In this document: piece after piece, positions 1 to 29,282 of the stretch
How positions within the stretch are numbered: position 1 is the stretch's first letter
Layout: each line of letters opens with the position of its first letter
DNA from: a virus
IMG/VR virus record: IMGVR_UViG_3300029893_000002
DNA: 47,377 bases
Reading direction: 5' to 3' (one strand)
The notes under the pieces: model-generated
The model's input: only the letters and a program-made list of their open reading frames with translations
The model's database searches: none
What the model was told of the DNA's origin: nothing
Made by a program: the position numbers and the translations under genes

Positions 1-2077
1 CCGGCTCGCCAGCCGAAAGACGGTCATCTGTTTCGACTCGGACGCCGCCCACAACTCGGACGTCATGCGCGCGGCGCGCGTCCTTGCCGGGATGCTGCTC
101 GCCGAGGGGGTGACCGGCACCTCGTTCGTCCGGATCCCGCCGACCTCGAGCGGCGGCAAGCAGGGCATCGACGATCTCTTCGTCAACACCGGCGCCGGCG
201 ACGGGGCCAAGAGCGTGATCTGGGCGCTCATGGAGGAGGCCGAGGCCCTCGAGCCCGTCTCGATCCGCGAGCCCCTGCTCAAGATCCTCGAGTGCCGCGG
301 GCTCGGCGAGGCGCCAGTCCCGAAGAAGCTGCTCATGCCCGGCAACTACTACACCGACCGGTTCGGGCAGATCTACGCGAAGTCGGACGATCCGGACGAT
401 CCGGTGGACAAGCTCGTCGAGCGCCGCCCGGTGCTGATCCGAGGCCTCTTGCGTGATCAGCACTCGGACGAGATGCGGGTCGAGCTCACGTTCAAGACGA
501 CGAGCGACGGCTGGCGCGACGCGACCGTGCCCCGGCAGGCGATCTGCGACACGCGGGCGTGCGTGACCGAGCTCTCGAAGCACGGCGCGGCCGTCGATGC
601 GACGAGCGTCAAGCGCGTGATCCAGTTTCTGCGCGACATCGAGCACGTGAACGGCGATCTCTTGCCCGTGACCCCGTGCGTTCGGCGCGCCGGCTGGAAC
701 CGCATCGCGGGCCGCGAGGTCTTCGCCACGAACGAGGTCATCGCGCCGCGGGCGCGCGAGGGCGATCCCGATCTACCCCGCATCGTCGTCGACGGGTTCG
801 ACGGGACGACGCAGATCTTGAGCGCGCTCCACACCGACGGCGAGCTCGAGCTGCACAAGCACGGCCTGCGCGTCGCCTTCCGCGAGGACCCGGTCGCGGC
901 GACGTTCATCTGCGCCGCGTTCGCCGCGCCGCTCCTCTACAAGGTCGGCTGCAAGAACTTCGTCGTCCACGTCCCGGGCGACTCGAGCCGGGGTAAGACG
1001 TCGATGCTCAAGATGGCCGCGAGCCTCTACGGCGACCCCGAGAGCGAGGACTGGGTCGCCAGCTGGCACTCGACCCAGGTCGGGATGGAGTACCGGGCCG
1101 CGACGCTCTGCGATCTGCCGCTGTGCTTCGACGAGTCGTCGGTCGTCGATCGCGAGACGCTCGAGAAGAACGTCTACATGCTCGTCAACGGCGTCGGCAA
1201 GGTGCGTGGCGCGCGCGGCGGCGGCGTGCGCGACACGATGAAGTGGCGGACGATCATCCTCAGCACGGGCGAAAACCCGCTCGCCGACGAGCGCGCGAAG
1301 TCGGGCGCCCAAGCGCGCGTCCTCGAGCTGTACGTCGCCGGCGACGGCGGAGGGATGAGCGCGGCGACGGTCGACGATCTGCGGACGACCCTCGGCGAGA
1401 ACTACGGCCACGTCGGCCGCGCCTGGATCGAGCACCTGCTCGGGATGGAGGACTGGCGTCCGGTGCGCGAGGCCTACCGCAAGCTCGTCAAGCTCTACCA
1501 GGAGGACACCCGCGGCGGCGGCATCGACGCCCGGCAGGCGAGTTACCTCGCCCTCCTCGTCCTGACTGAACAGTGGATCAGCGAGCTATTCCAGATCGGC
1601 GACCCCGAGGGGCTCACGATGGACGCCTGGTTCCACGCGAGCCCCGAGCACCGGCGCCAAACGACGCCGCTCGCCGACCGAGCCTTGCGGTCGGTCGTCG
1701 ACTGGTGGCACTCTGCTCCACAGAGCTTCCCCGAGCTGTCGCTCATGCCCGACGGCGAGGAGGAACCGAAGGACCATGGCGCTCGAGAGCTCTTCGGCTA
1801 CCGTGACCGGACCGCGGTCTGGATCATCCCGACCAGGCTGCGCGACTGGTTCGAGCGCCAGGGCCTCCCGTACGAGACCGTCCTTCGCAGCTGGAAGGAC
1901 CGGGACTGGATCCTGGTCGACGGCCGCGACCGGCGCGGCTTCCAGAAGAGCCGCCGCATCCGCGGCGCCAAGAGCAAATTCGTCGCGATCCGACGCGACG
2001 TGTTCGAGGCTCGCGACGACAGCGAGCCCGACGAGGACTTCGCCGATGGCACAGCCCACGCTGGCACAGTGGCCTGA
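1..2077 (+). CDS. Primase-helicase (Toprim/DUF3854-like N-terminus + DUF927 helicase), 5'-truncated
   Basis: The frame is open from position 2 (RLASRKTVICFDSDAAHNSDVM...), so the true start is upstream of the window. Toprim-like FDSD and KQGIDD; Walker A GDSSRGKT; Walker B LCFDE; STGE motif. Confidence 0.88.
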   Translation, partial: RLASRKTVICFDSDAAHNSDVMRAARVLAGMLLAEGVTGTSFVRIPPTSSGGKQGIDDLFVNTGAGDGAKSVIWALMEEAEALEPVSIREPLLKILECRGLGEAPVPKKLLMPGNYYTDRFGQIYAKSDDPDDPVDKLVERRPVLIRGLLRDQHSDEMRVELTFKTTSDGWRDATVPRQAICDTRACVTELSKHGAAVDATSVKRVIQFLRDIEHVNGDLLPVTPCVRRAGWNRIAGREVFATNEVIAPRAREGDPDLPRIVVDGFDGTTQILSALHTDGELELHKHGLRVAFREDPVAATFICAAFAAPLLYKVGCKNFVVHVPGDSSRGKTSMLKMAASLYGDPESEDWVASWHSTQVGMEYRAATLCDLPLCFDESSVVDRETLEKNVYMLVNGVGKVRGARGGGVRDTMKWRTIILSTGENPLADERAKSGAQARVLELYVAGDGGGMSAATVDDLRTTLGENYGHVGRAWIEHLLGMEDWRPVREAYRKLVKLYQEDTRGGGIDARQASYLALLVLTEQWISELFQIGDPEGLTMDAWFHASPEHRRQTTPLADRALRSVVDWWHSAPQSFPELSLMPDGEEEPKDHGARELFGYRDRTAVWIIPTRLRDWFERQGLPYETVLRSWKDRDWILVDGRDRRGFQKSRRIRGAKSKFVAIRRDVFEARDDSEPDEDFADGTAHAGTVA

Positions 2078-4135: not shown

Positions 4136-4407
4136 GGCCCCGACGCCCCCGGCGCGCGGAGCGTGGGGAAGACCTCGGCGAGGACCTCGGCGACGTGGTG
4201 CTCCTCGACGCGCCGGATCACGGGGTTCCAGCCGCGGTAGAGCGCGACGAACTCGAAGAGCCCAAAGCCCCGCCGCCGCGCGATGTCCTCGAGCGACTGG
4301 TCGCGGCCGAACAGGCGCGCGTAGGTCTCGTAGGCGCGCGCGGCGGCGACCCGGGGGACGACGAGGCCGCCCTGGATGGGAAACCAGCGCGTGAGATCGA
4401 GGCTCAT
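4132..4407 (-). CDS. Hypothetical phage protein
   Basis: ATGA coupling to the oxidoreductase; YARLFGRDQSLEDIARRRGFG segment. Confidence 0.6.
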   Translation of the reverse strand: MSLDLTRWFPIQGGLVVPRVAAARAYETYARLFGRDQSLEDIARRRGFGLFEFVALYRGWNPVIRRVEEHHVAEVLAEVFPTLRAPGASGP

Positions 4408-5384
4408 CGGCGAAGCTCCTCGCGCCAGAACGACCCGAGGGCGCCGTCGCCGTAGAGGGGCGCCTCGCCGATCGCCTGGACGAGCTCGATGGCGGGGCGC
4501 GCCTCGTCGATGCCGACGCCCGCGCCACGGGCGACCGCCCGGTAGACCTCGGTGTGCAGCTCGCCGAACCCGTCGAGCTCGAGCGCGCCCTCGGCCGTCC
4601 GGACCGCCCGATAGGGGCGGCGGGGACTCTGGTGGCTCGGCGGCAGATCGGCCGGCCGCGTCGAGAGGTGAAAGCGGACGTGGCCGCCCGCGCCCGGCTC
4701 GCCGAGGTAGACGTCGCCCGCGATCGCACGCAGGACGCGCTGGCCCGTGACGGCGGAGCGCTCGACGTCGCGGAGGGTGACGCTCACGGCCCGCACGGGC
4801 CCAAAGAGCCATGTCATGAGGTCGAACAGGTGGATGCCGAGGTTCATGGCGAGCCCCCCCGACTGCTCGGCACTCTTCCAGCTGGCGTCGTACCAAGCGC
4901 CGCGCGGCGTCACGTACACGATGTCGAGCTCGGTCGTGAGCGGACGGCCTCGCAGCCTCTCACGGAGCTGCTGGAGGCTCGGCAGGTGTCGGAGCTGGAG
5001 CACGGTATAGACGCGCCGATCGTAGGTGTCCTCGAGCACGGGAAGGAACTCGCCGAGGTGATCGGGCTGGACGACGAGGGGCTTTTCGCAGATCGCATGC
5101 GCCCCCGACCGGAGCGCCAGCTCCACGTGCGCGGCGTGCAGGTGGTTCGGGGTGCAGATCGAGACGAAGTCGACCGGGCGCCCTTGGCGCCGAAGGATCC
5201 GGAGGTGGCTCTCGAACCACCCAGCCGACGTGAAGAACGCGGCATCGGGAAAGAACTCGTCGAGGATCCCGACCGAGTCGTGCGGATCGCAGGCGGCGAC
5301 GAGCTCGTGGCCGAGGTCTCGGATCGCCTTCATGTGGCGCGGCGCGACGAAGCCGGCGGCACCGAGGAGAGCGAAGCGTGCCAT
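4404..5384 (-). CDS. wbpB: Gfo/Idh/MocA oxidoreductase, WbpB/WlbA-like UDP-GlcNAcA 3-dehydrogenase
   Basis: FALLGAAGFVAPRHMKAI, DPHDSVGILD, SICTPNHLH, ICEKPL, VLQLR and NLGIHLFD are characteristic of the WbpB/WlbA subfamily. Confidence 0.85.
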   Translation of the reverse strand: MARFALLGAAGFVAPRHMKAIRDLGHELVAACDPHDSVGILDEFFPDAAFFTSAGWFESHLRILRRQGRPVDFVSICTPNHLHAAHVELALRSGAHAICEKPLVVQPDHLGEFLPVLEDTYDRRVYTVLQLRHLPSLQQLRERLRGRPLTTELDIVYVTPRGAWYDASWKSAEQSGGLAMNLGIHLFDLMTWLFGPVRAVSVTLRDVERSAVTGQRVLRAIAGDVYLGEPGAGGHVRFHLSTRPADLPPSHQSPRRPYRAVRTAEGALELDGFGELHTEVYRAVARGAGVGIDEARPAIELVQAIGEAPLYGDGALGSFWREELRR

Positions 5385-5399
5385 GGGCCCGATGCTACC

Positions 5400-6191
5400 T
5401 CACCAGACAAGCGCGTGTTCGGACCAGAACGCCTGCGCCTCGGCGAGTGCCCCCGGGTCGCCCTCGAGCGACGGGTCGTCCGGTTCGCGGGGAGCGGCCG
5501 GGCCGCCGTAGGCGGTGTACAGGACGGCGGGATGGCCGACGTACGGGCCGATGACGACGGTGACGCGCCGGGTCATGCGCACGCCCGCGGAGGCCGGTAC
5601 GGGCTCGAGGCGTGGGCCGATCAGGCGCCTCGACGGCCACTCCCGGCCGGGGCGCCGCTCCATTCGCACCGCGTGGTCGCCGACGGGCGGGTCTCCCATC
5701 GCCGGGCCCCAGAGCGCGCATTCGAGCGCGGAGAGGTGGCGAGGCGGCTCGAGCGTGCGGACGACGACGCCCTCGCCCAGGCCCCACTCCTCCCAGTGCG
5801 CCTCGCACTGGGAGATGAGCCACGCCAGGTGATCGGCCGAGAGGCCGTGGTCGATATGGGCCTCTCGGCCGATGAGCACCTGGCGCACCGTCGGCACCGG
5901 CATGTCGCCGGTGACCCGGTACGCCCGCGCCTCGCCCGCGATCTCGCGCAGGCGCTCGATCGATAGCTCGCGTCCTCGGTCGCCGGGCTCGAGGGCGAGC
6001 GGGACCACGGTGACAGACCGCGCCCACGAGGCCAGCTCGAATGGCAGCACGCCGATGACGTCCTTGCCCGCGATCTGTTCGGGGTCGGTGACGTGCGAGA
6101 GGACCGGAGTCCCCTCGCCGATGATGCCGCGCTCGACGAGGAGCGCGACGAGCGCCTGGTGGCGCGTGACTACGACGGTTTCGTTGCCCAT
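5400..6191 (-). CDS. Csx16-like (putative ring nuclease) domain fused to a phage domain of unknown function
   Basis: N-terminus VVVTRH...DVIGVLPFELA...RGRELSIERL...AYRV matches the Csx16/VVA1548 pattern. C-terminus LYTAYGGPAAPREP...AFWSEHAL. ATG 6191 has an AGGGG RBS. Confidence 0.65.
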   Translation of the reverse strand: MGNETVVVTRHQALVALLVERGIIGEGTPVLSHVTDPEQIAGKDVIGVLPFELASWARSVTVVPLALEPGDRGRELSIERLREIAGEARAYRVTGDMPVPTVRQVLIGREAHIDHGLSADHLAWLISQCEAHWEEWGLGEGVVVRTLEPPRHLSALECALWGPAMGDPPVGDHAVRMERRPGREWPSRRLIGPRLEPVPASAGVRMTRRVTVVIGPYVGHPAVLYTAYGGPAAPREPDDPSLEGDPGALAEAQAFWSEHALVW

Positions 6192-6230
6192 AACCCCTAG
6201 ACGCCCCACGTAGCTGCGATCTGACACCTG

Positions 6231-6733: not shown

Positions 6734-6954
6734 CCGTCCTCGTAGCGCTCGAGGAACTTGTTGGCGTCGCGGACCTTGACGATATAGATGGGGTGATCGG
6801 GCTTGCCGATCCTCTCGGCGCTGAGCTCGCCGCGCCGGATGGCGTTGCGGACGGTATTCTCGTGAAGCCCCCCCGCCTCGGCAATCTCCGAAGGCATCAC
6901 GTGGTCAAACGGCTTTTTGCCGGTGATCCGGCCTCTCTTCTTCGACGCGTTCAT
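6730..6954 (-). CDS. Excisionase-like helix-turn-helix DNA-binding protein
   Basis: PSEIAEAGGLHENTVRNAIRRGELSAERIG is a typical MerR/HTH_17-type signature. Confidence 0.75.
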   Translation of the reverse strand: MNASKKRGRITGKKPFDHVMPSEIAEAGGLHENTVRNAIRRGELSAERIGKPDHPIYIVKVRDANKFLERYEDG

Positions 6955-7637
6955 GCGCTCTTATCCTTTCCGCGGACGAGATCGGCTGCCGTGGTGAGAT
7001 CCAGCGTGGAGCGAGGGCCGCGGTAGCGGACCCCCGAGCAGCGGACGACGTGGCCCAGCCGGCCGAACTCGCGCTCGAAGCGCCGGACGGCGGGACCGAA
7101 GTAGACGACGACGGACTCGAAGTCGGCGCCGAAGGGAGCGCCGAGAAAGAAGAGCCGGCCGTCGACGAAACAGATGCAGCTGGCGAAGGCCCAGTACCAC
7201 CGGAACCACGCCGCCGACGGCGAGCTCGGCGACAGCATGAACCGGTGCGCCCCGGGGGCGGTGCGGTGCGCCATGACGACGCGCCGCGCCCAGCGGTTAT
7301 TGATGGCGCGGCCGTAGGGGTGGTTGCAGAACAGGCTCGAGTAGCGCTCGCCGTCGCGGCTGTGCGTCCAGCTGACGGCGAGGCCGTCCTTGCCGTAGAT
7401 GCGCCGCTCGCCGGGTCGCGGCTCCCAGTCGACCCGCGGCGGCCGCCGCCGTCGCCGGTAGCGCTCGAGCATGAACACGTGCCTCGCGTCCACGATCGAG
7501 TGCGGGTTTCCGCATGGGTCGAAGTCGATGCGGCCCTGGATCACTTCCCGGACCGGATCGAGGACCTCGGGCGGCGTCGCCCAGTCGTCGCGAGGGAGGC
7601 GGACCGAGGCCTTCTCGGCGCGTCGTCTGCCCGGCAT
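6951..7637 (-). CDS. Phage DNA N6-adenine methyltransferase (Dam-like)
   Basis: DDWATPPEV, DFDPC, FCNHPYG (NPPY-like motif IV) and ICFVDGRLFF. Confidence 0.8.
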   Translation of the reverse strand: MPGRRRAEKASVRLPRDDWATPPEVLDPVREVIQGRIDFDPCGNPHSIVDARHVFMLERYRRRRRPPRVDWEPRPGERRIYGKDGLAVSWTHSRDGERYSSLFCNHPYGRAINNRWARRVVMAHRTAPGAHRFMLSPSSPSAAWFRWYWAFASCICFVDGRLFFLGAPFGADFESVVVYFGPAVRRFEREFGRLGHVVRCSGVRYRGPRSTLDLTTAADLVRGKDKSA

Positions 7638-8888: not shown

Positions 8889-9230
8889 TCACCGGGTCCC
8901 CGGGTACGGCGGCACGTACCGTTCGGTCGTCGACCAAAAACAGGCGTGGCACTCGAGCACGCTGACCGAGTCGCCCAACGCGTGACGGACGAGCAGGCGC
9001 CCCTCCTTGCACGCGCCGCAGGGGCGGCTCTCGACAACGGGCACGATCCGATCGATGCGGTTGCGGTCGTAGCCGAACCCGCGGGCCTTTTTGAAGATCG
9101 TCTCGGCGACGATGGCCACGGCGTCGGAGGCCGAACACGCGGCCACATCGGACACGTGGGCCCTGGTGTCGAGGGTATGCTGGTGGAAGCGACCGAGGAC
9201 GTAGTACACGCGGTAGATCACCAGGCTCAT
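8889..9230 (-). CDS. Hypothetical protein with Zn ribbon
   Basis: CGAC...CHAC; coupled start. Confidence 0.6.
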   Translation of the reverse strand: MSLVIYRVYYVLGRFHQHTLDTRAHVSDVAACSASDAVAIVAETIFKKARGFGYDRNRIDRIVPVVESRPCGACKEGRLLVRHALGDSVSVLECHACFWSTTERYVPPYPGTR

Positions 9231-9514
9231 GAGGTGGTCCTCCGGATGGCCGCCACCTGGCGGTCTCGGGCATGGACCGACGGCCGCGGGTCGTCGGTGA
9301 CGACGAAGACGGGCCGGCCGGCGCGATCGACGTGCCTGCGGTTTTGGCCCGACCGGCCGACGACATCGACGAGGGCCTCGCAGAACCGCGAGGCCTGGGG
9401 CGCCGACGCGATCCGCACGGTCCGCATGTCGAGAGCGTGCTTTCCGAGGAGCTCGGTCTCCTTGGCGCCGAGCCGGACGAGCGCGCGCCAGGCGCGCTTT
9501 TCCTGATCGTTCAT
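9227..9514 (-). CDS. Hypothetical protein
   Basis: ATG 9514 with a GAGGGG RBS. Confidence 0.55.
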   Translation of the reverse strand: MNDQEKRAWRALVRLGAKETELLGKHALDMRTVRIASAPQASRFCEALVDVVGRSGQNRRHVDRAGRPVFVVTDDPRPSVHARDRQVAAIRRTTS

Positions 9515-9525
9515 GGCCGTCCCCC

Positions 9526-10377
9526 TCAGTGCTCGAGGCGGTAGGTGGTCCCGGCGATCACGGCGTCCCAGTACGCCGTCGGGTCCTGGTGATCGGGGTA
9601 GTGCTCGTCGAGCCACCGCGTGGCCTCGGCGATGGCCCTCATCCGGAATGGATCGGCGGGGTCGCCCTTGAAGTGGGCGACCACCTTCGACAGCGGAAAG
9701 GCGACCGCGTGGTCGATGATGGCGACGTCGACGGGCCCGAGGTCCTTGGGTGGCATCCCGAGTTCGGCGTTGCGGACCGAGAGCCGCCGGATCAGGTGGA
9801 TCATCGCGCAGCGGTCGTAGGCCGCCCTCTTGTAGAACATCTTGGCGCGGTGGCGCCCCTCGGCGTCGAGGAGGACCATGTGCCGAGGGTCGTCCTCCGG
9901 CGAGACGATCCGCCACCCCTCGGGTGCGCTCCGGACGGGACGGAGGAGATCGTCGCCGTCCTCGCCGGGCTCGCCGAGATCGAACCCGAGCTTCGCCCAC
10001 ACCTCCTCGAGCCCGCGGGTCCCATCGACCGGGAGGTGCCGGAGCAGCCGCGCCTCGGCGGCGCCCCGGATCTCGCCGACCGTGTTGCGGCCGTCGTCGG
10101 TCGGCAGTGACTCGGCCAGCTGCATCAACGGATCGTTCGTTCTGTCCTTCATGTCCTTACCCCTTTCGTCAGCGCCGACGAGCGACTCCGAGACGTAGTC
10201 GCACCAGCGGCACCGGACCACCTTGATCAGCTCGGGGCCCCCGGTCTCGAGGTAGCGGCGGCTGATCGCGTTCTTGCGCTGGCACGCAGGGCACCGGCGC
10301 GCCTCGGCCACGCGCTTCATGGCCTTGCTGGTCGCCTCCCGGTGCCGCCGGTGCCGATCGTCGTTCGAGGGCCTCAT
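9526..10377 (-). CDS. Hypothetical phage protein (N-terminal Zn ribbon; possible second start at 10152)
   Basis: CPAC...CRWC, then VLLDAEGRHRAKMFYKRAAYDR. Confidence 0.65.
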   Translation of the reverse strand: MRPSNDDRHRRHREATSKAMKRVAEARRCPACQRKNAISRRYLETGGPELIKVVRCRWCDYVSESLVGADERGKDMKDRTNDPLMQLAESLPTDDGRNTVGEIRGAAEARLLRHLPVDGTRGLEEVWAKLGFDLGEPGEDGDDLLRPVRSAPEGWRIVSPEDDPRHMVLLDAEGRHRAKMFYKRAAYDRCAMIHLIRRLSVRNAELGMPPKDLGPVDVAIIDHAVAFPLSKVVAHFKGDPADPFRMRAIAEATRWLDEHYPDHQDPTAYWDAVIAGTTYRLEH

Positions 10378-10640
10378 CGGCGTTTCGCCCCCTCGCCCGG
10401 CGCGCTATCGAAGGCGTGGCGGCGTATCTCCGGGAGCTCCGCGTCCTCGGCGAGGATGGCGGCGCGCGCCTTGGCGGTCGCGACCGGGTGGATCATGCAC
10501 TCACCGTGGGCGATCTCCACGACGTTGATCGCGTCCATCTTGTCCACCGCCTCGACCGTGTATACGGTGCGGTAGCGGACCTCCTGCACCACGACGTACC
10601 GCTTCAACCGGCCACCCTCCGGGTTTGCTGCGCCGCTCAC
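10374..10640 (-). CDS. Hypothetical protein
   Basis: GTGA coupling to the MTase stop; KRYVVVQEVRYRTVYTVEA. Confidence 0.55.
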   Translation of the reverse strand: MSGAANPEGGRLKRYVVVQEVRYRTVYTVEAVDKMDAINVVEIAHGECMIHPVATAKARAAILAEDAELPEIRRHAFDSAPGEGAKRR

Positions 10641-12712
10641 AGCGCGTACCGCTGCTCGGGTTCGACCCACACCGACCCCGAGTGAAGCTGGAAGGCGCCC
10701 GCGGCCGCCTCGGTGAGCGCGACGAGCATCTGTTCGGCGATCGCGCGCGCGGCGCCGACCGGGACGGCGTTGCCGATCCGCTCGCGCCAGCCGTCCACGC
10801 GGTTTCCGGCGAGGCAGAGGGGCTTGCCGTTCACGACGGTCGGGAGGCCCTGGAGCACGGCGAGCTCGAGCGTGGTCATCGGCCGGTGCCACGTGCCGTC
10901 CTCGGCGATGATCACCGGGATCGACGGGGGCGCGCGGCGGATGTTCTTGATCACCATGATGGGCTCGGCCTCGGGGAAGCGCGGGTCGGCGACGGCCCAG
11001 GCGCCGTTGTCGATGTTCGCGTGGCCCGTCACGGTCTTGGCCGCCTCGTACCAGGGGATGACGCCGTAGCTGCCGGCGCGGGGCGTGCCCTTGACGCGCG
11101 GGTCGGCGACCGAGTAGGCGCCCGTGCCGGGGAGCGCCTGGCCGTGGATCGTGAACGACGGATCGGCCCACGGCAGAACCCGGTAGCCGTGGTCGTAGGC
11201 GCGCTTGATGCGCGCGTCGGCGACCGCGCCGCCGCCGTTCGAGGGGTGGCCACCGCCGGTCACGGTGCCCGCCGGGTCGATCCACGGGACCACGCGGTAG
11301 ACGTTGCCGAACCACTTTGCGGCGCGCGGATCGGCGACCGAGAAGCGGCCGCTCGTCGTCTTCGCGCCGCCGGTCACCGTCGCCGCCGGCTCGTCCATCG
11401 ACTGGACGCCCATGGCGCCGTGGTGCCAGGCCGTGCCGTCGCGGAGGAGCTCACCGATGCGCGGGTCGGCGACCGACGGGGCGCCCGAGCCCGGCCGCGT
11501 CGCGCCGATGACGGCGTTCGAGGCCTCGTCCCAGCCCTTGACGCTGTACTTGTTGCGGTGCCGGGTCGGGTTGTCGCTGAGGCCGAGAATCCGCGGGTCG
11601 GCGACGGCGAAGGGGCCGTTGCTCGGGCGGCTCTCGCCGGTGACGGCGCCGGCGGCCTCGTCCCAGCCCTTGACCCCGTGCGGGCCGCCGCCCCAGCCCT
11701 TGACGCGCGGGTCGGCGACCGAGAAGCGGCCGTTGCTCGGCGTCGTGCGGCCGGTGACGGTGTCGGACGGCTCGTCCCAGCCCTTGACCCCGTAGGGGCT
11801 GAACCCGAGTTGCTCGAGGGCGCGCGGGTCGGCGACGTTGGCGACGCCGGAGGAGCCGGGCCCGGTGACGGCGCCGGTCGGATCCTCCCAGCCCTCGACG
11901 GCGTGCCGCTTGTGGACCTCGCGCCGCTTCTGGCCCTCGGCGAGGACGCCGTTCAGGTCGCGCCAGTCGCCGCCGGCCGGGATGAGCGCGAGCCGGACCC
12001 AGTTGAGCCAACTGATGCGCGGCATCTTGTGGAGCGGGCCCGCGATCGGATCCTCGGGCATCGGCAGCTCGCCGAGGACCTCGCCGCACGCGCGGACGCG
12101 CTTCTTCGGCGGCTGGTAGAGGGGCGGCGGGCACTTCTTCGGGTGGCGCGCGACGAGCAAAAAGCGACGCCGGTGCTGAGCGAGGCCGCCGAGCTCGCCG
12201 CAGTCGTGGCTTTGCTCGTGAAAGACGTAGCCCGCCTGGGCGAGGAGCGTCTTCACGCGCGCGAGCAGCTCCTTGCCGCGGCTCGCGATGCGCGGAACGT
12301 TCTCGAGGAGAAAGAGCGAGGGCGGATCGTCGCCCCAGGTGCGCAGCATGAGCTCGACCCACTGGATGACGAGCCGGTTGAGCTTCTCGTACTTCTCGGC
12401 CTTGGACGCCTTCTTCCCGAGCAATCCGCTGAATCCCTTACACGGAGGAGAAGAAAATACGACGTCGGGCGCCGTCGGGCCGGCGAACTCAATGAGCTCG
12501 GCCGGCGTCAGCGTCGCGATGTCGGCGCAGAGTGCCGGTGCGCCGACGAGGTACTCGAAGTCCTCGCAGGCGAGCGGGTCGTTGTCGATGCCGCCGAGGG
12601 CCTCGAACCGGGCCTCGCGTCCGAGCAACTGGACCTGCGCGTCGAGAAACCCCCGCGCCCCGGCCCCGAGGCCGCAGAACGGAAAAAACGCGGTGAAAGT
12701 GGTAGTCGTCAT
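10637..12712 (-). CDS. DNA (cytosine-5) methyltransferase with a repeat-expanded variable region
   Basis: Motif I FCGLGAG, IV SPPCKGFS, VI LLENV, VIII QHRRRF, X RIGNAVP. ATG 12712 with a GGAGG RBS. Confidence 0.92.
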   Translation of the reverse strand: MTTTTFTAFFPFCGLGAGARGFLDAQVQLLGREARFEALGGIDNDPLACEDFEYLVGAPALCADIATLTPAELIEFAGPTAPDVVFSSPPCKGFSGLLGKKASKAEKYEKLNRLVIQWVELMLRTWGDDPPSLFLLENVPRIASRGKELLARVKTLLAQAGYVFHEQSHDCGELGGLAQHRRRFLLVARHPKKCPPPLYQPPKKRVRACGEVLGELPMPEDPIAGPLHKMPRISWLNWVRLALIPAGGDWRDLNGVLAEGQKRREVHKRHAVEGWEDPTGAVTGPGSSGVANVADPRALEQLGFSPYGVKGWDEPSDTVTGRTTPSNGRFSVADPRVKGWGGGPHGVKGWDEAAGAVTGESRPSNGPFAVADPRILGLSDNPTRHRNKYSVKGWDEASNAVIGATRPGSGAPSVADPRIGELLRDGTAWHHGAMGVQSMDEPAATVTGGAKTTSGRFSVADPRAAKWFGNVYRVVPWIDPAGTVTGGGHPSNGGGAVADARIKRAYDHGYRVLPWADPSFTIHGQALPGTGAYSVADPRVKGTPRAGSYGVIPWYEAAKTVTGHANIDNGAWAVADPRFPEAEPIMVIKNIRRAPPSIPVIIAEDGTWHRPMTTLELAVLQGLPTVVNGKPLCLAGNRVDGWRERIGNAVPVGAARAIAEQMLVALTEAAAGAFQLHSGSVWVEPEQRYAL
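10979..11905 (-). repeat. Eight intragenic ~30-40 aa repeats (V..W.[ED]....VTG......G...VADPR)
   Basis: Read directly from the translation: seven ADPR and one ADAR endings. Confidence 0.9.
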
Positions 12713-26601: not shown

Positions 26602-27537
26602 CTACATCCCCCATGCGCCGTCGAGGGCGCTCGTGTCGGGCTCGGCGCCAGCGCGTAGCTCGTCGCGTACCTGGCGTAGGCTGAGGCCGTGCTTGAACGT
26701 GTGGCCGATCGCGTCCTCGATCCGCACGTACTCGTCGAGCAGCGCGGGGTTGTGCTTGGCCGCGATCAGGAGGGCCGCCTTCGGCGCGAAAATGCAGAAT
26801 ACGCACGACAACCTGGGCATCCCGAGGTCGTAGGCGTGGTGGTAGCGGACCCCGCTCGACCGGATGCGCTCCCACACCTCGCGCTCGGTCCAGTGGTGGA
26901 TGGGAAGCCACGTGTCCACGTGGCGCTTCGCGGTGCAGCCCTCCCGGCTGTCGGTGCCCGGGGCGGCGCCGCGCACGAAGGGCGCCATGGCCGCGCGGTG
27001 CGGGCTCTCCTCGGCGCGCATCCCCATGCAGTTGAGCACCCGGAACGGTCGCCGCACGCCGTGCTCGCGGTGCAGGGCCGTGATGAGCTTGCGGATGGGG
27101 CCGCGCTTGTGATCGGACGTGCAGTAGCGGGCGTTGCCGGGCCCGGGCCACTTGCGGCGCCGCTCCACGTGGTCGAGCAGGTCGCCGAACCGCTCGCCCT
27201 TGCGATAGGGCGCGTCGGCGGACCGTCCGCCCGGGCTGATCCCGCCGATGCGGCTGACCGCCTCGAAGCGGACGCGGTAGGCGCTGGCCTGCTCTTCGGC
27301 GAGGGCCCGGGTCCCCTCCCACTCGACGCGCCCGAGGTCGGCGTGGACGACGACGATCCGGTCGCGCACGCCCGCGGCGTCGGCGAGCTGCACCAGGTAG
27401 TCGAGCATCGCCTGGCTGTCCTTGCCCGCGCTGCTACTGACCACGATGCGGTCGTAGCTTGCGAGGTCGGGCCCCTCCGGTGACCGCCGGATGAGACGGT
27501 CGACCGGAAAGAGCCCCAGCTGGTCGTCGGTGCTCAC
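26602..27537 (-). CDS. PAPS reductase-family (PP-loop, Fe-S) protein
   Basis: SSSAGKDS PP-loop, RYCTSDHK, GMRAEES, LPIHHW, RLSCVFC. Confidence 0.88.
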   Translation of the reverse strand: MSTDDQLGLFPVDRLIRRSPEGPDLASYDRIVVSSSAGKDSQAMLDYLVQLADAAGVRDRIVVVHADLGRVEWEGTRALAEEQASAYRVRFEAVSRIGGISPGGRSADAPYRKGERFGDLLDHVERRRKWPGPGNARYCTSDHKRGPIRKLITALHREHGVRRPFRVLNCMGMRAEESPHRAAMAPFVRGAAPGTDSREGCTAKRHVDTWLPIHHWTEREVWERIRSSGVRYHHAYDLGMPRLSCVFCIFAPKAALLIAAKHNPALLDEYVRIEDAIGHTFKHGLSLRQVRDELRAGAEPDTSALDGAWGM

Positions 27538-27764
27538 CCCCGGTCCCTCACGCGGGTGGGCTCGCCGTTGATCTCGAACCCGAGGACGGGCCCGTCGCCG
27601 CAGTGAAAGAGATCGGCCGCGTGCTCGGCGTCGTACGCCCAGTAGCGGTCGGCCCCAGTGTGATGGTGGTCGGCGCTGCACCGGTACGGGACGCGGTACA
27701 GGTAGAGAGTGCCGTGCTCACCGGCCTTGGTGCGGTAGCGCGGCCGCGATCGAGTCGTCGTCAT
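27534..27764 (-). CDS. Hypothetical protein
   Basis: GGAAGGAAGG RBS; coupled to the PAPS-reductase gene. Confidence 0.55.
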   Translation of the reverse strand: MTTTRSRPRYRTKAGEHGTLYLYRVPYRCSADHHHTGADRYWAYDAEHAADLFHCGDGPVLGFEINGEPTRVRDRG

Positions 27765-28704
27765 GCCTTCCTTCCTTCCTTCGCGGGATCGCCACCTTCC
27801 CCGTGGCGTCCCGCACGAGCTTGTCGGCGTCCGGGTCGAGCGGCGCCGCATCGGGGCCGGTCTCCCACCGTGCCTTGCGCCCCGGCTGGGCCACCGCGCG
27901 GCGTCGTCGTCGGCGCCTACCCCACTCGCCCCCGGCGCTGAGGCCGGTGACGCGCCAGCCCGCGGCGCGGTAGCAGGTGCCCGCCTCGCCGACGATCGTG
28001 TAGCTGACGATCCGGCGGTAGCCGAGGGCGACGGCGGCGCGGGTGAGGGCGGCGATGGCCTTGCTCGCCGCGTGCCGGGTCCCGTCGGATGCGACGCGGG
28101 TGATCTCCGCCGTCGCGCCGTCGTCCAGCTGGCGGGCGACGGGGCGACCGAGGATCGCGACGCACCGGAGCGCTCCGGCGCCGTCGCGGACGCCCACGGC
28201 GCACAGTCCCCCCGGGGGGGGCGGGAGGTGCGAGTGGTGGGCGTCTACCCAGCGGCGGGCGCGGGTGAGCGTCATGGGGGCGACGGCGAGGGGCCGGGGG
28301 GCATCCGGGGCGTGCTCGAGTCCGTCGGCGACGGTGAGCAGGGCCCGCTCGGCGTCCGGCTCGCGCCGGAGCCCGAGGGCGGCGACCAGCGCGATGAGAT
28401 CGGCGGGGCCGTCGCCCTCGATCCACTCGCCGTCCCACGCGGCCGCCCAGCCGGGGAAGTCCGGGTCCGTCGGATCGTGGTAGAAGGACGGATCCTCGGC
28501 GGGCTGCCATCCACGGGCGGCCAGCCAGTCCATGAGGTCGTGCTGGAGGAGCCGGAGGTGGGCCGGGTCGTCGAGTCGCCAGCCCGCCCGGGCGAGCCAG
28601 TCGCGGACCGCCCCGGGCGTGCCCGGCGGCTCGCCCAGCACGTCGAGGGCGGGGGGGTCCCCGGTCCCCCCACCCCCCAGCAGTAGCTCCAGCTGGTTCC
28701 CCAT
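27718..28704 (-). CDS. XF1762-family / Mom-like GNAT DNA-modification protein with an N-terminal extension
   Basis: WVDAHHSHL, VAILGRPVARQLDDG, EITRVASDG, ALGYRRIVSYT, EAGTCYRAAGW. Confidence 0.8.
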   Translation of the reverse strand: MGNQLELLLGGGGTGDPPALDVLGEPPGTPGAVRDWLARAGWRLDDPAHLRLLQHDLMDWLAARGWQPAEDPSFYHDPTDPDFPGWAAAWDGEWIEGDGPADLIALVAALGLRREPDAERALLTVADGLEHAPDAPRPLAVAPMTLTRARRWVDAHHSHLPPPPGGLCAVGVRDGAGALRCVAILGRPVARQLDDGATAEITRVASDGTRHAASKAIAALTRAAVALGYRRIVSYTIVGEAGTCYRAAGWRVTGLSAGGEWGRRRRRRRAVAQPGRKARWETGPDAAPLDPDADKLVRDATGKVAIPRRKEGRHDDDSIAAALPHQGR

Positions 28705-29282
28705 GGTGGCACCCACAGTCTAGCACACACGGACGCCCGGCGCCAGTCGAGTATTCACGGGGGGTTGCCGGAGGGGCCCCGGGGTGCCCCCGGGGGAAGT
28801 TTGTCAACGGGTGAAGGGTATCTGCCCTTAAACCCCTCCGGCCCGGATCGGGCCTTCCCGAGGCGCCGCGGGGCCCCGGGGCTTGTCAAGCTGTAAAGCC
28901 GGGCGGGGCCCCCCGAGGGGGCCCGCGGGCGCCGCGCGGACCGCTGGAGGGGAGGGGGGCCCGGAGGGGGGGGCCGGGCGTGCCCGCGCCACGGGGGGCC
29001 GGTCCGTCGGGCTGGGCACCGTTGGGTGGGCTGGGCCCCCGGCGGCCGACAGTCCCCGACTGCCCCCCGGGGGTGGCGGTTGGGGGCTTGCGGAGCGCCT
29101 CGGCGCCCCTCGGCGCCCCGCCCTCCGGCGACATCGGCGAGCGTCCAGCGCCCGCCCCCCCCACTGGCCCCCTTCGGACGCCGTGCGGGACGGCGTGCGT
29201 GCGGCCGTGTCGGTCGCCGTCGTGCGCCGCTTCCTGATAACCTGTTGCGGCAGCGATCGCTCGGCGGTTACCCTCGCGGTCC
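28705..29282. promoter_or_regulatory. Divergent early/late control region
   Basis: Strand switch; TGCTAGACT-GTGGG on the minus strand at ~28712-28725; two TTGTCAA sites; G/C-run hairpins. Confidence 0.5.

Follow-up and report, generated by a model that had tools for sequence, protein, structure and literature searches.

Viral ring nucleases and the Csx16 family

Viral ring nucleases are the main known route by which viruses silence type III CRISPR signalling. AcrIII-1 and AcrIII-2 are established viral enzymes of this kind that act as anti-CRISPRs and, to our knowledge, only these two families of viral ring nuclease have been proven. Csx16 has been confirmed experimentally as a ring nuclease specific for cA4 (cyclic tetra-adenylate), and in the dimer model made of it, conserved residues surround the ligand site (PMC12409355); it has been noted in 2 of 28,114 phage genomes (Hoikkala 2025, PMC12409355). 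Related small proteins, represented by Csx15, can be sponges or broad-range enzymes (PMC13148439; 10.64898/2026.10.26.761840).

Here we describe a viral gene in which a domain of the Csx16 family is fused to a second, quite different domain. The gene lies on a stretch of 47,377 nucleotides (IMG/VR virus record IMGVR_UViG_3300029893_000002), referred to below as the window. The original prediction for this gene, made from the DNA letters, was that it encodes a captured ring nuclease that acts against type III CRISPR and is joined to a partner domain without a known role. Since the literature already contains the core idea, an anti-CRISPR role for phage Csx16, the interest of the locus is moderate, and what is new is the fusion partner.

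The fusion gene and its surroundings

The fusion gene occupies positions 5400..6191 on the minus strand and, read from its ATG, encodes 263 amino acids followed by a stop codon. An alternative in-frame GTG at 6227 (minus strand) would add 12 residues, giving a product of 275 aa; the ATG is favoured because the relatives begin only 1-4 residues ahead of the VVVTRH motif. The frame is unbroken, and GC3 is uniform along the gene. Its value of 0.89 is like that of the neighbouring genes, and this codon-position composition fits a real gene.

The gene lies within a long run of genes on the same strand, extending from 12712 down to 3839. At the head of the run is a C5 cytosine DNA methyltransferase of 691 aa (10637..12712, minus strand), followed by a Dam-like DNA methyltransferase (6951..7637, minus strand), which matches an orphan-methyltransferase model, then by small unknown genes, the Csx16 fusion and, as the next gene downstream, an oxidoreductase of the GFO/IDH/MocA type (4404..5384, minus strand). 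Elsewhere in the window, at 26602-28716 (minus strand), adjacent genes match phrog_424, a phage family resembling PAPS reductase (E 6e-37), and phrog_1384, a Mom-like protein of DNA modification (E 1e-25). Given these genes and the two methyltransferases, DNA modification seems to be a major investment of this virus. In addition, the product of a gene at 65-2077 (plus strand), which runs past the window start, combines DUF927 with a Cch-type HTH; in a sister assembly, the same protein has 881 aa with DUF3854 and DUF927, and it is likely a replication protein of the primase-helicase type.

The absence of cas genes and of an array near the gene, already remarked upon in the original prediction, holds for the whole window: protein scans found no cas gene among the scanned proteins of the 47 kb, and a repeat search with Tandem Repeats Finder found no CRISPR-like array. 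Nor did the scans recognise a terminase, portal or tail gene in the late region.

Identity of the N-terminal domain

The Csx16 (Cas_VVA1548) domain comprises aa 4-95 (5907..6182, minus strand) and is supported by the Pfam and PADLOC matches, the conserved residues and the predicted dimer. The three motifs in the N-terminal ~95 aa from which the domain was originally recognised, TRH, VIGVLP.ELA and RGRELS, are all present, as T9-R10-H11, V45-IGVLPFELA-54 and R72-GRELS-77. They are not there by chance, since aa 7-93 match PF09652 (Cas_VVA1548) end to end. In this search, which had been proposed together with the prediction, the protein aligned with profile positions 2-90 of 91 at E 9e-14 and 51.9 bits, the gathering cut-off being 25 bits. 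Three PADLOC models of Csx16 matched as well (1.3e-12, 1.4e-4 and 3.7e-4), and an NCBIfam scan of the fusion protein gave no match. PF09652 was the sole Pfam domain found in the protein, which matches neither DUF1874 nor SAVED.

Conservation was assessed by comparing 66 mobile-element-type sequences with 30 CRISPR-linked ones, a position being counted as near-invariant when at least 80% of the sequences in both groups have the same residue. All 19 such positions are kept in the fusion protein: R10, H11, G22, H33, G42, I46, G47, L49, P50, L53, A54, L65, L67, R72, G73, E75, L76, R82 and Y91.

When the N-terminal profile was searched against PDB sequences, only designed ankyrin repeats were matched, at E 4e-6; these were rejected as a motif coincidence arising from the short pattern G-x-x-P-L-x-L-A-A. 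The stretch concerned (aa 42-57 of the fusion protein, GxVIGVLPxxLAA) could mislead automatic annotation.

Structure prediction suggests that the domain forms pairs. A single-sequence AlphaFold model of the whole protein was poor (mean pLDDT 40), also in the N-terminal domain, for which membership of Csx16 would imply a CARF-like Rossmann-type fold with helices on either side of a five-stranded sheet and where block means were only 50-79, and a whole-protein alignment that mixed N-only and C-only relatives was misaligned by MAFFT and was left out. Prediction of aa 1-96 as a homodimer gave a score of 0.75 versus 0.00 for the best of three controls, with a pLDDT of 90 and with runs that agree in at least 92% of contacts. 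In the calibration of this score, the mark was reached by 20 of the 30 solved one-chain pairs and by 1 of the 23 solved single chains. The N-terminal domain is thus predicted to form a symmetric homodimer, the two-fold interface being built from residues 48-64 and the last strand, residues 89-96. A recurring tandem duplication fits such a two-fold functional unit: of the seven relatives that were matched by phmmer in two stretches, six, all metagenomic, have a tandem double Csx16 domain, as does the Allomeiothermus silvanus protein described below.

Relatives in viruses, plasmids and CRISPR loci

The closest relatives of the Csx16 domain, at 44-73% identity, are mostly stand-alone proteins of 92-130 aa, and those whose surroundings were examined lie on phages, in a prophage or on conjugative plasmids and not in cas loci. 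Three metagenomic contigs with close relatives belong to phages, the first with genes for terminase and portal; the second (L003), where the Csx16 protein is stand-alone, has terminase, portal and Mu-F genes, and the third has genes for lysozyme, DnaB and PolA. On L003, an AcrVA2-like gene (PF26125; 11271-12239) is found three genes downstream of Csx16, and the two may be part of an anti-CRISPR cluster. A prophage copy in a Bryobacterales genome (L008) adjoins a Mu-type portal/MuF gene. At L008 5776-8781 (minus strand), ~1 kb from the Csx16-like gene, a 1002-aa prophage protein combines Mu portal and Mu-F with a BrnT RNase toxin domain at its C-terminal end; the genome has two Cas10 genes elsewhere. 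Another genomic copy (L007) adjoins a large serine recombinase. At this locus, two Csx16-domain genes, of 329 aa and 94 aa, are adjacent (8985-10279), and an SMC-like ATPase is near them, as is the recombinase.

Two further copies are carried by plasmids, both of which were typed with mating-pair-formation (MPF_T) genes, and cas genes are absent nearby. On pDEIPR02 of Deinococcus proteolyticus, the Csx16 gene lies among ssb genes and small ORFs. On pMESIL02 of Allomeiothermus silvanus (L015 9992-10777), a tandem double Csx16 protein of 261 aa, annotated as 'CRISPR-associated protein Csx16', is encoded beside genes for type IV secretion coupling proteins; its first Csx16 domain has TQH in place of TRH.

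A peptide-pattern scan located 42 viral loci in IMG/VR (GC 32-71%) versus 5 loci in the genomes of 185,579 species, each species being represented by one genome. Of four bacterial genomes with a copy of the mobile-element type, three encode a Cas10 (Cmr2 or Csm1) above the curated cut-off at another place; this fits an anti-type III role, the sample of four genomes being tiny. Among 50,697 cultured phage records, tblastn with the Csx16 domain gave weak matches only (Bacillus phage Shbh1, E 0.03; Clostridium phage phiCs5676-1, E 0.5).

In Allochromatium vinosum and A. tepidum, by contrast, csx16 lies beside csm6 and cas1 (in A. vinosum, cas2 too), and the products are only ~35% identical to the Csx16 domain of the fusion. 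A quick maximum-likelihood tree sets the CRISPR-linked sequences, a narrow sample in that all are related to the Allochromatium protein, apart on a long branch as a single clade (SH-aLRT 93-95), and it places the domain of the fusion among viral and metagenomic sequences. On this sequence comparison, the domain belongs to a large, old-looking clade of viruses and plasmids that is separate from the CRISPR-linked sample. Since it nests inside such a clade, recent capture is not indicated. Consequently, the 'captured' ring nuclease of the original prediction was overstated in its first word, whereas assignment to the Csx16 family is upheld by the profile, the residues, the predicted dimer and the mobile relatives.

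The two groups also differ in sequence. The residue at position 9 is Thr among the mobile-element sequences and usually Ser among the CRISPR-linked ones, and several other well-conserved positions differ between the mobile-element clade and the CRISPR-linked sample (for example 13-14, 43, 48 and 61-62), so ligand specificity could differ too. It might be argued from these clade-specific substitutions at otherwise conserved positions, and from the Csx15 precedent of a sponge or broad-range enzyme (PMC13148439; 10.64898/2026.10.26.761840), that the Csx16-like domain of the mobile clade is directed at another signal, such as a cyclic oligoadenylate (cOA) of other size or a CBASS-type cyclic nucleotide, or is mainly a sponge. 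However, the polar residues conserved across the family are all kept, and Cas10 accompanies three of the four genomic copies; we regard this alternative as unlikely.

The C-terminal domain

The C-terminal domain comprises aa 105-263 (5403..5879, minus strand) and is supported by an alignment, a model, fold matches and a weak match to phrog_23674, to which no function is assigned. It was originally taken to be unrelated to the first domain, and it does indeed prove to be a separate module of ~160 aa that occurs by itself in hundreds of protein clusters. Genes for this domain alone are surrounded by small genes on the same strand, in a phage-like arrangement, and the Atlas clusters of the family are mostly viral. 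In the 50,697 cultured phage records, tblastn found one match, in Pectobacterium phage CBB (E 2e-4). An alignment with 58 relatives that align well reveals conserved residues at (numbered in the 100-263 piece) H13, D15, H16, P51, G63, P64, R81, R84, S88, R89, G130, G131, P135, E137, D140, F156, W157 and H160.

Sequence searches did not place the family. Pfam gave no meaningful match, PF11539 (DUF3228) being found in none of 59 members at E <= 1, and neither a PDB sequence search with the domain profile nor the BFVD viral structure library returned anything. With an alignment, however, AlphaFold2 produced a confident model (pLDDT 92.9, pTM 0.86). Its best fold matches are 2pd0 and 4fbd, apicomplexan proteins with no known function (Foldseek probability 0.99-1.0, E 4.5e-3 to 1.2e-2); for 2pd0, VIA-align gave Z 8.3 and an rmsd of 3.8 over 147 residues. 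The next match is an RNase-A-like CdiA-CT toxin from Yersinia kristensenii (5e3e, Z 6.1), followed by a consistent run of the RelE, ParE, HigB, YoeB, YafQ and BrnT toxins at Z 4-5.2, and more weakly by the RelE domain of Cami1 (Z 3.7) and RegB of T4 (Z 3.0). Independently, the Atlas search gave DUF3228, RNAse_A_bac and PBECR2 as neighbours, and one viral neighbour cluster has DUF3228 in 11% of its members.

The Barnase-EndoU-ColE5/D-RelE (BECR) fold houses metal-independent RNases and is common in the 'polyvalent' proteins of phages. Judged by the model, the C-terminal domain represents an unannotated, phage-rich protein family with a confidently predicted fold, and it reads as a DUF3228-like member of the BECR-type fold. 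The conservation of His, Arg, Ser and Glu is in keeping with the chemistry of a metal-independent RNase, and an enzyme of this type is our working hypothesis for the domain; it is held at that strength because Z scores of 4-6 may reflect a shared arrangement only. The partner domain that the original prediction had left without a role has gained a predicted fold (DUF3228-like / RelE-RNase-A-like).

One member of the family (P0148) is fused to a Phage_zn_bind_8 zinc finger. On a phage contig (L020 8939-9535), another member lies two genes upstream of a Phage_zn_bind_8 protein, and the association may be a recurrent one.

How the two domains are combined

The linker between the domains, aa 96-104 (5880..5906, minus strand), directly follows the last beta-strand of the Csx16 domain, which is part of the predicted dimer interface. 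Since the interface strand continues directly as the linker, pairing of the Csx16 domains, and perhaps the binding of a ligand, would be expected in the model to position both C-terminal domains.

The combination itself appears to be rare. Homology searches covering 5.8 billion proteins and 1.84 billion cluster representatives returned 1509 matches at E <= 0.001, and no second fusion of the two domains was found among the best 150 of these and 39 of similar length; every match listed, the query aside, is confined to aa ~4-95 or to aa ~105-262, and none spans the two. Furthermore, neither module is near the other in any of 49 other loci (47 for the Csx16 domain and 2 for the C-terminal family). 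In other proteins, the viral Csx16 domain carries at least three further, unrelated extensions at its C-terminal end and several at its N-terminal end, none of which matches Pfam. A Pfam search of the partners in other fusions of either domain recognised only one Phage_zn_bind_8 and one sub-threshold DUF4325. The pattern looks as if independent accessory modules were loosely combined, and not like a sensor and an effector that evolved together.

Proposed function

Taken together, the sequence comparisons support the original candidate reading of an anti-type III ring nuclease. We put at roughly 0.6 the probability that the fusion is a two-module viral counter-defence protein, of which the Csx16 part would be the predicted anti-type III ring nuclease, and we consider it about equally probable that the protein blunts cA4 signalling. 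In this model, a type III CRISPR complex of the host would detect viral RNA and make the second messenger cA4. The Csx16 domains would pair as a symmetric dimer, which would bind and cut cA4, and the cA4-dependent effectors would then stay off, as they do with AcrIII-1 and AcrIII-2. The dimer would also place two C-terminal domains side by side, and these would most likely add a second activity, that of a predicted metal-independent phosphodiesterase for RNA or oligonucleotides. The analysis itself establishes membership of the family, the conserved residues, the distribution over mobile elements, the predicted dimer and the modelled fold of the second domain; that this copy of Csx16 would cleave cA4 and thereby influence immunity, and that the C-terminal domain would be active at all, is inferred. 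Because the fusion is known from a single virus, it may have no combined function.

A bolder proposal is that the C-terminal domain belongs to a new, widespread family of metal-independent phage phosphodiesterases whose substrates are the nucleotide signals of immunity or the linear products of these, or else that the fusion is a cA4-gated RNase; that one or the other is true seems rather unlikely. If the C-terminal domain, with its RelE/RNase-A-like fold, did erase immune signals, the fusion would be a two-headed signal eraser.

Gating taken separately would mean that the Csx16 domain is a sensor, like CARF in Cami1 or Csm6, which switches the RelE-like domain on or off upon the alarm of the host; such an RNase could serve to shut down translation in the host or in a rival virus, or to time the programme of the virus itself. 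This would parallel Cami1, in which a small Rossmann-like dimer domain that binds cOA precedes a RelE-like fold (the Z 3.7 match above), and it would make use of the direct connection between the dimer strand and the C-terminal domain. However, the two modules overwhelmingly occur alone and apart, as in the 49 other loci, and the three or more other C-terminal partners of the Csx16 domain likewise indicate loose joining. In addition, Csx16 is a fast enzyme and not a stable sensor (PMC12409355), and the RNase assignment is itself weak. Thus, because the modules combine loosely, two weapons on one chain are ranked above a cA4-gated RNase, which we consider quite unlikely.

A role outside defence, perhaps in the nucleotide or RNA housekeeping of the virus, has also been considered, the fusion then being a neutral accident that joined two neighbouring accessory genes. 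The fusion is a singleton and the genes around it are mostly without an assigned function, as this explanation would have it, but cleavage of cA4 is the only known biochemistry of the Csx16 family, and a spread over plasmids and over viruses of 32-71% GC is typical of counter-defence cargo; such a role is improbable. Finally, a merger of two distinct genes through an error of sequencing or assembly, which could be suspected because the fusion was found only once, is very improbable, since a contig of a separate public assembly (listed for two samples) encodes an identical 263-aa protein and the frame is uninterrupted with uniform GC3.

Comparison with known systems

The locus is of wider use in two respects. 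It adds evidence for a large branch of Csx16 in viruses and plasmids, one that occurs in metagenomes much more often than the two cultured phages in print would suggest and that is freely joined to other modules. In addition, the partner family, with its hundreds of clusters, confident fold and conserved polar residues, is a tractable target in the search for a new counter-defence or RNA-cleaving activity.

With AcrIII-1 (DUF1874, the viral homologue of Crn2) and AcrIII-2 (viral SAVED), the fusion would share its proposed job, the destruction of cA4. The folds and families are unrelated, however, and those two proteins have been proven by experiment, whereas the activity of the fusion is predicted. 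With Csx16 itself (PF09652 / TIGR02620), it shares the domain profile, the size of ~90 aa, the predicted dimer and the near-invariant residues, which include [ST]RH, H33, GxVIGxLP, RGxEL, R82 and Y91. It differs from the CRISPR-linked members in that it is viral, belongs to a separate clade, has a second domain and lies outside any cas locus; with no cas gene or array in the window, it has a Csx16-family domain but is not 'CRISPR-associated'. The stand-alone or doubled Csx16 proteins of phages and plasmids are of the same mobile clade and are likewise found in early-gene regions or in the accessory regions of plasmids, but the C-terminal DUF3228-like / RelE-like domain is found only in the fusion.

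That second domain shares its fold with 2pd0 (cgd2_2020 of Cryptosporidium parvum, DUF3228-type) and has a fold moderately similar, at Z 4-6.1, to the RNase toxins of the BECR fold (CdiA-CT 5e3e, RelE, ParE, HigB, YoeB), in each case with no match between sequence profiles. In its overall plan, with a predicted dimer domain for nucleotide binding in front of a RelE-like fold, the protein resembles Cami1, the CARF-RelE effector of type III systems. Cami1, however, is a host effector that is encoded in type III loci and has a true CARF sensor, whereas the fusion is viral and its N-terminal domain is of an enzyme family.
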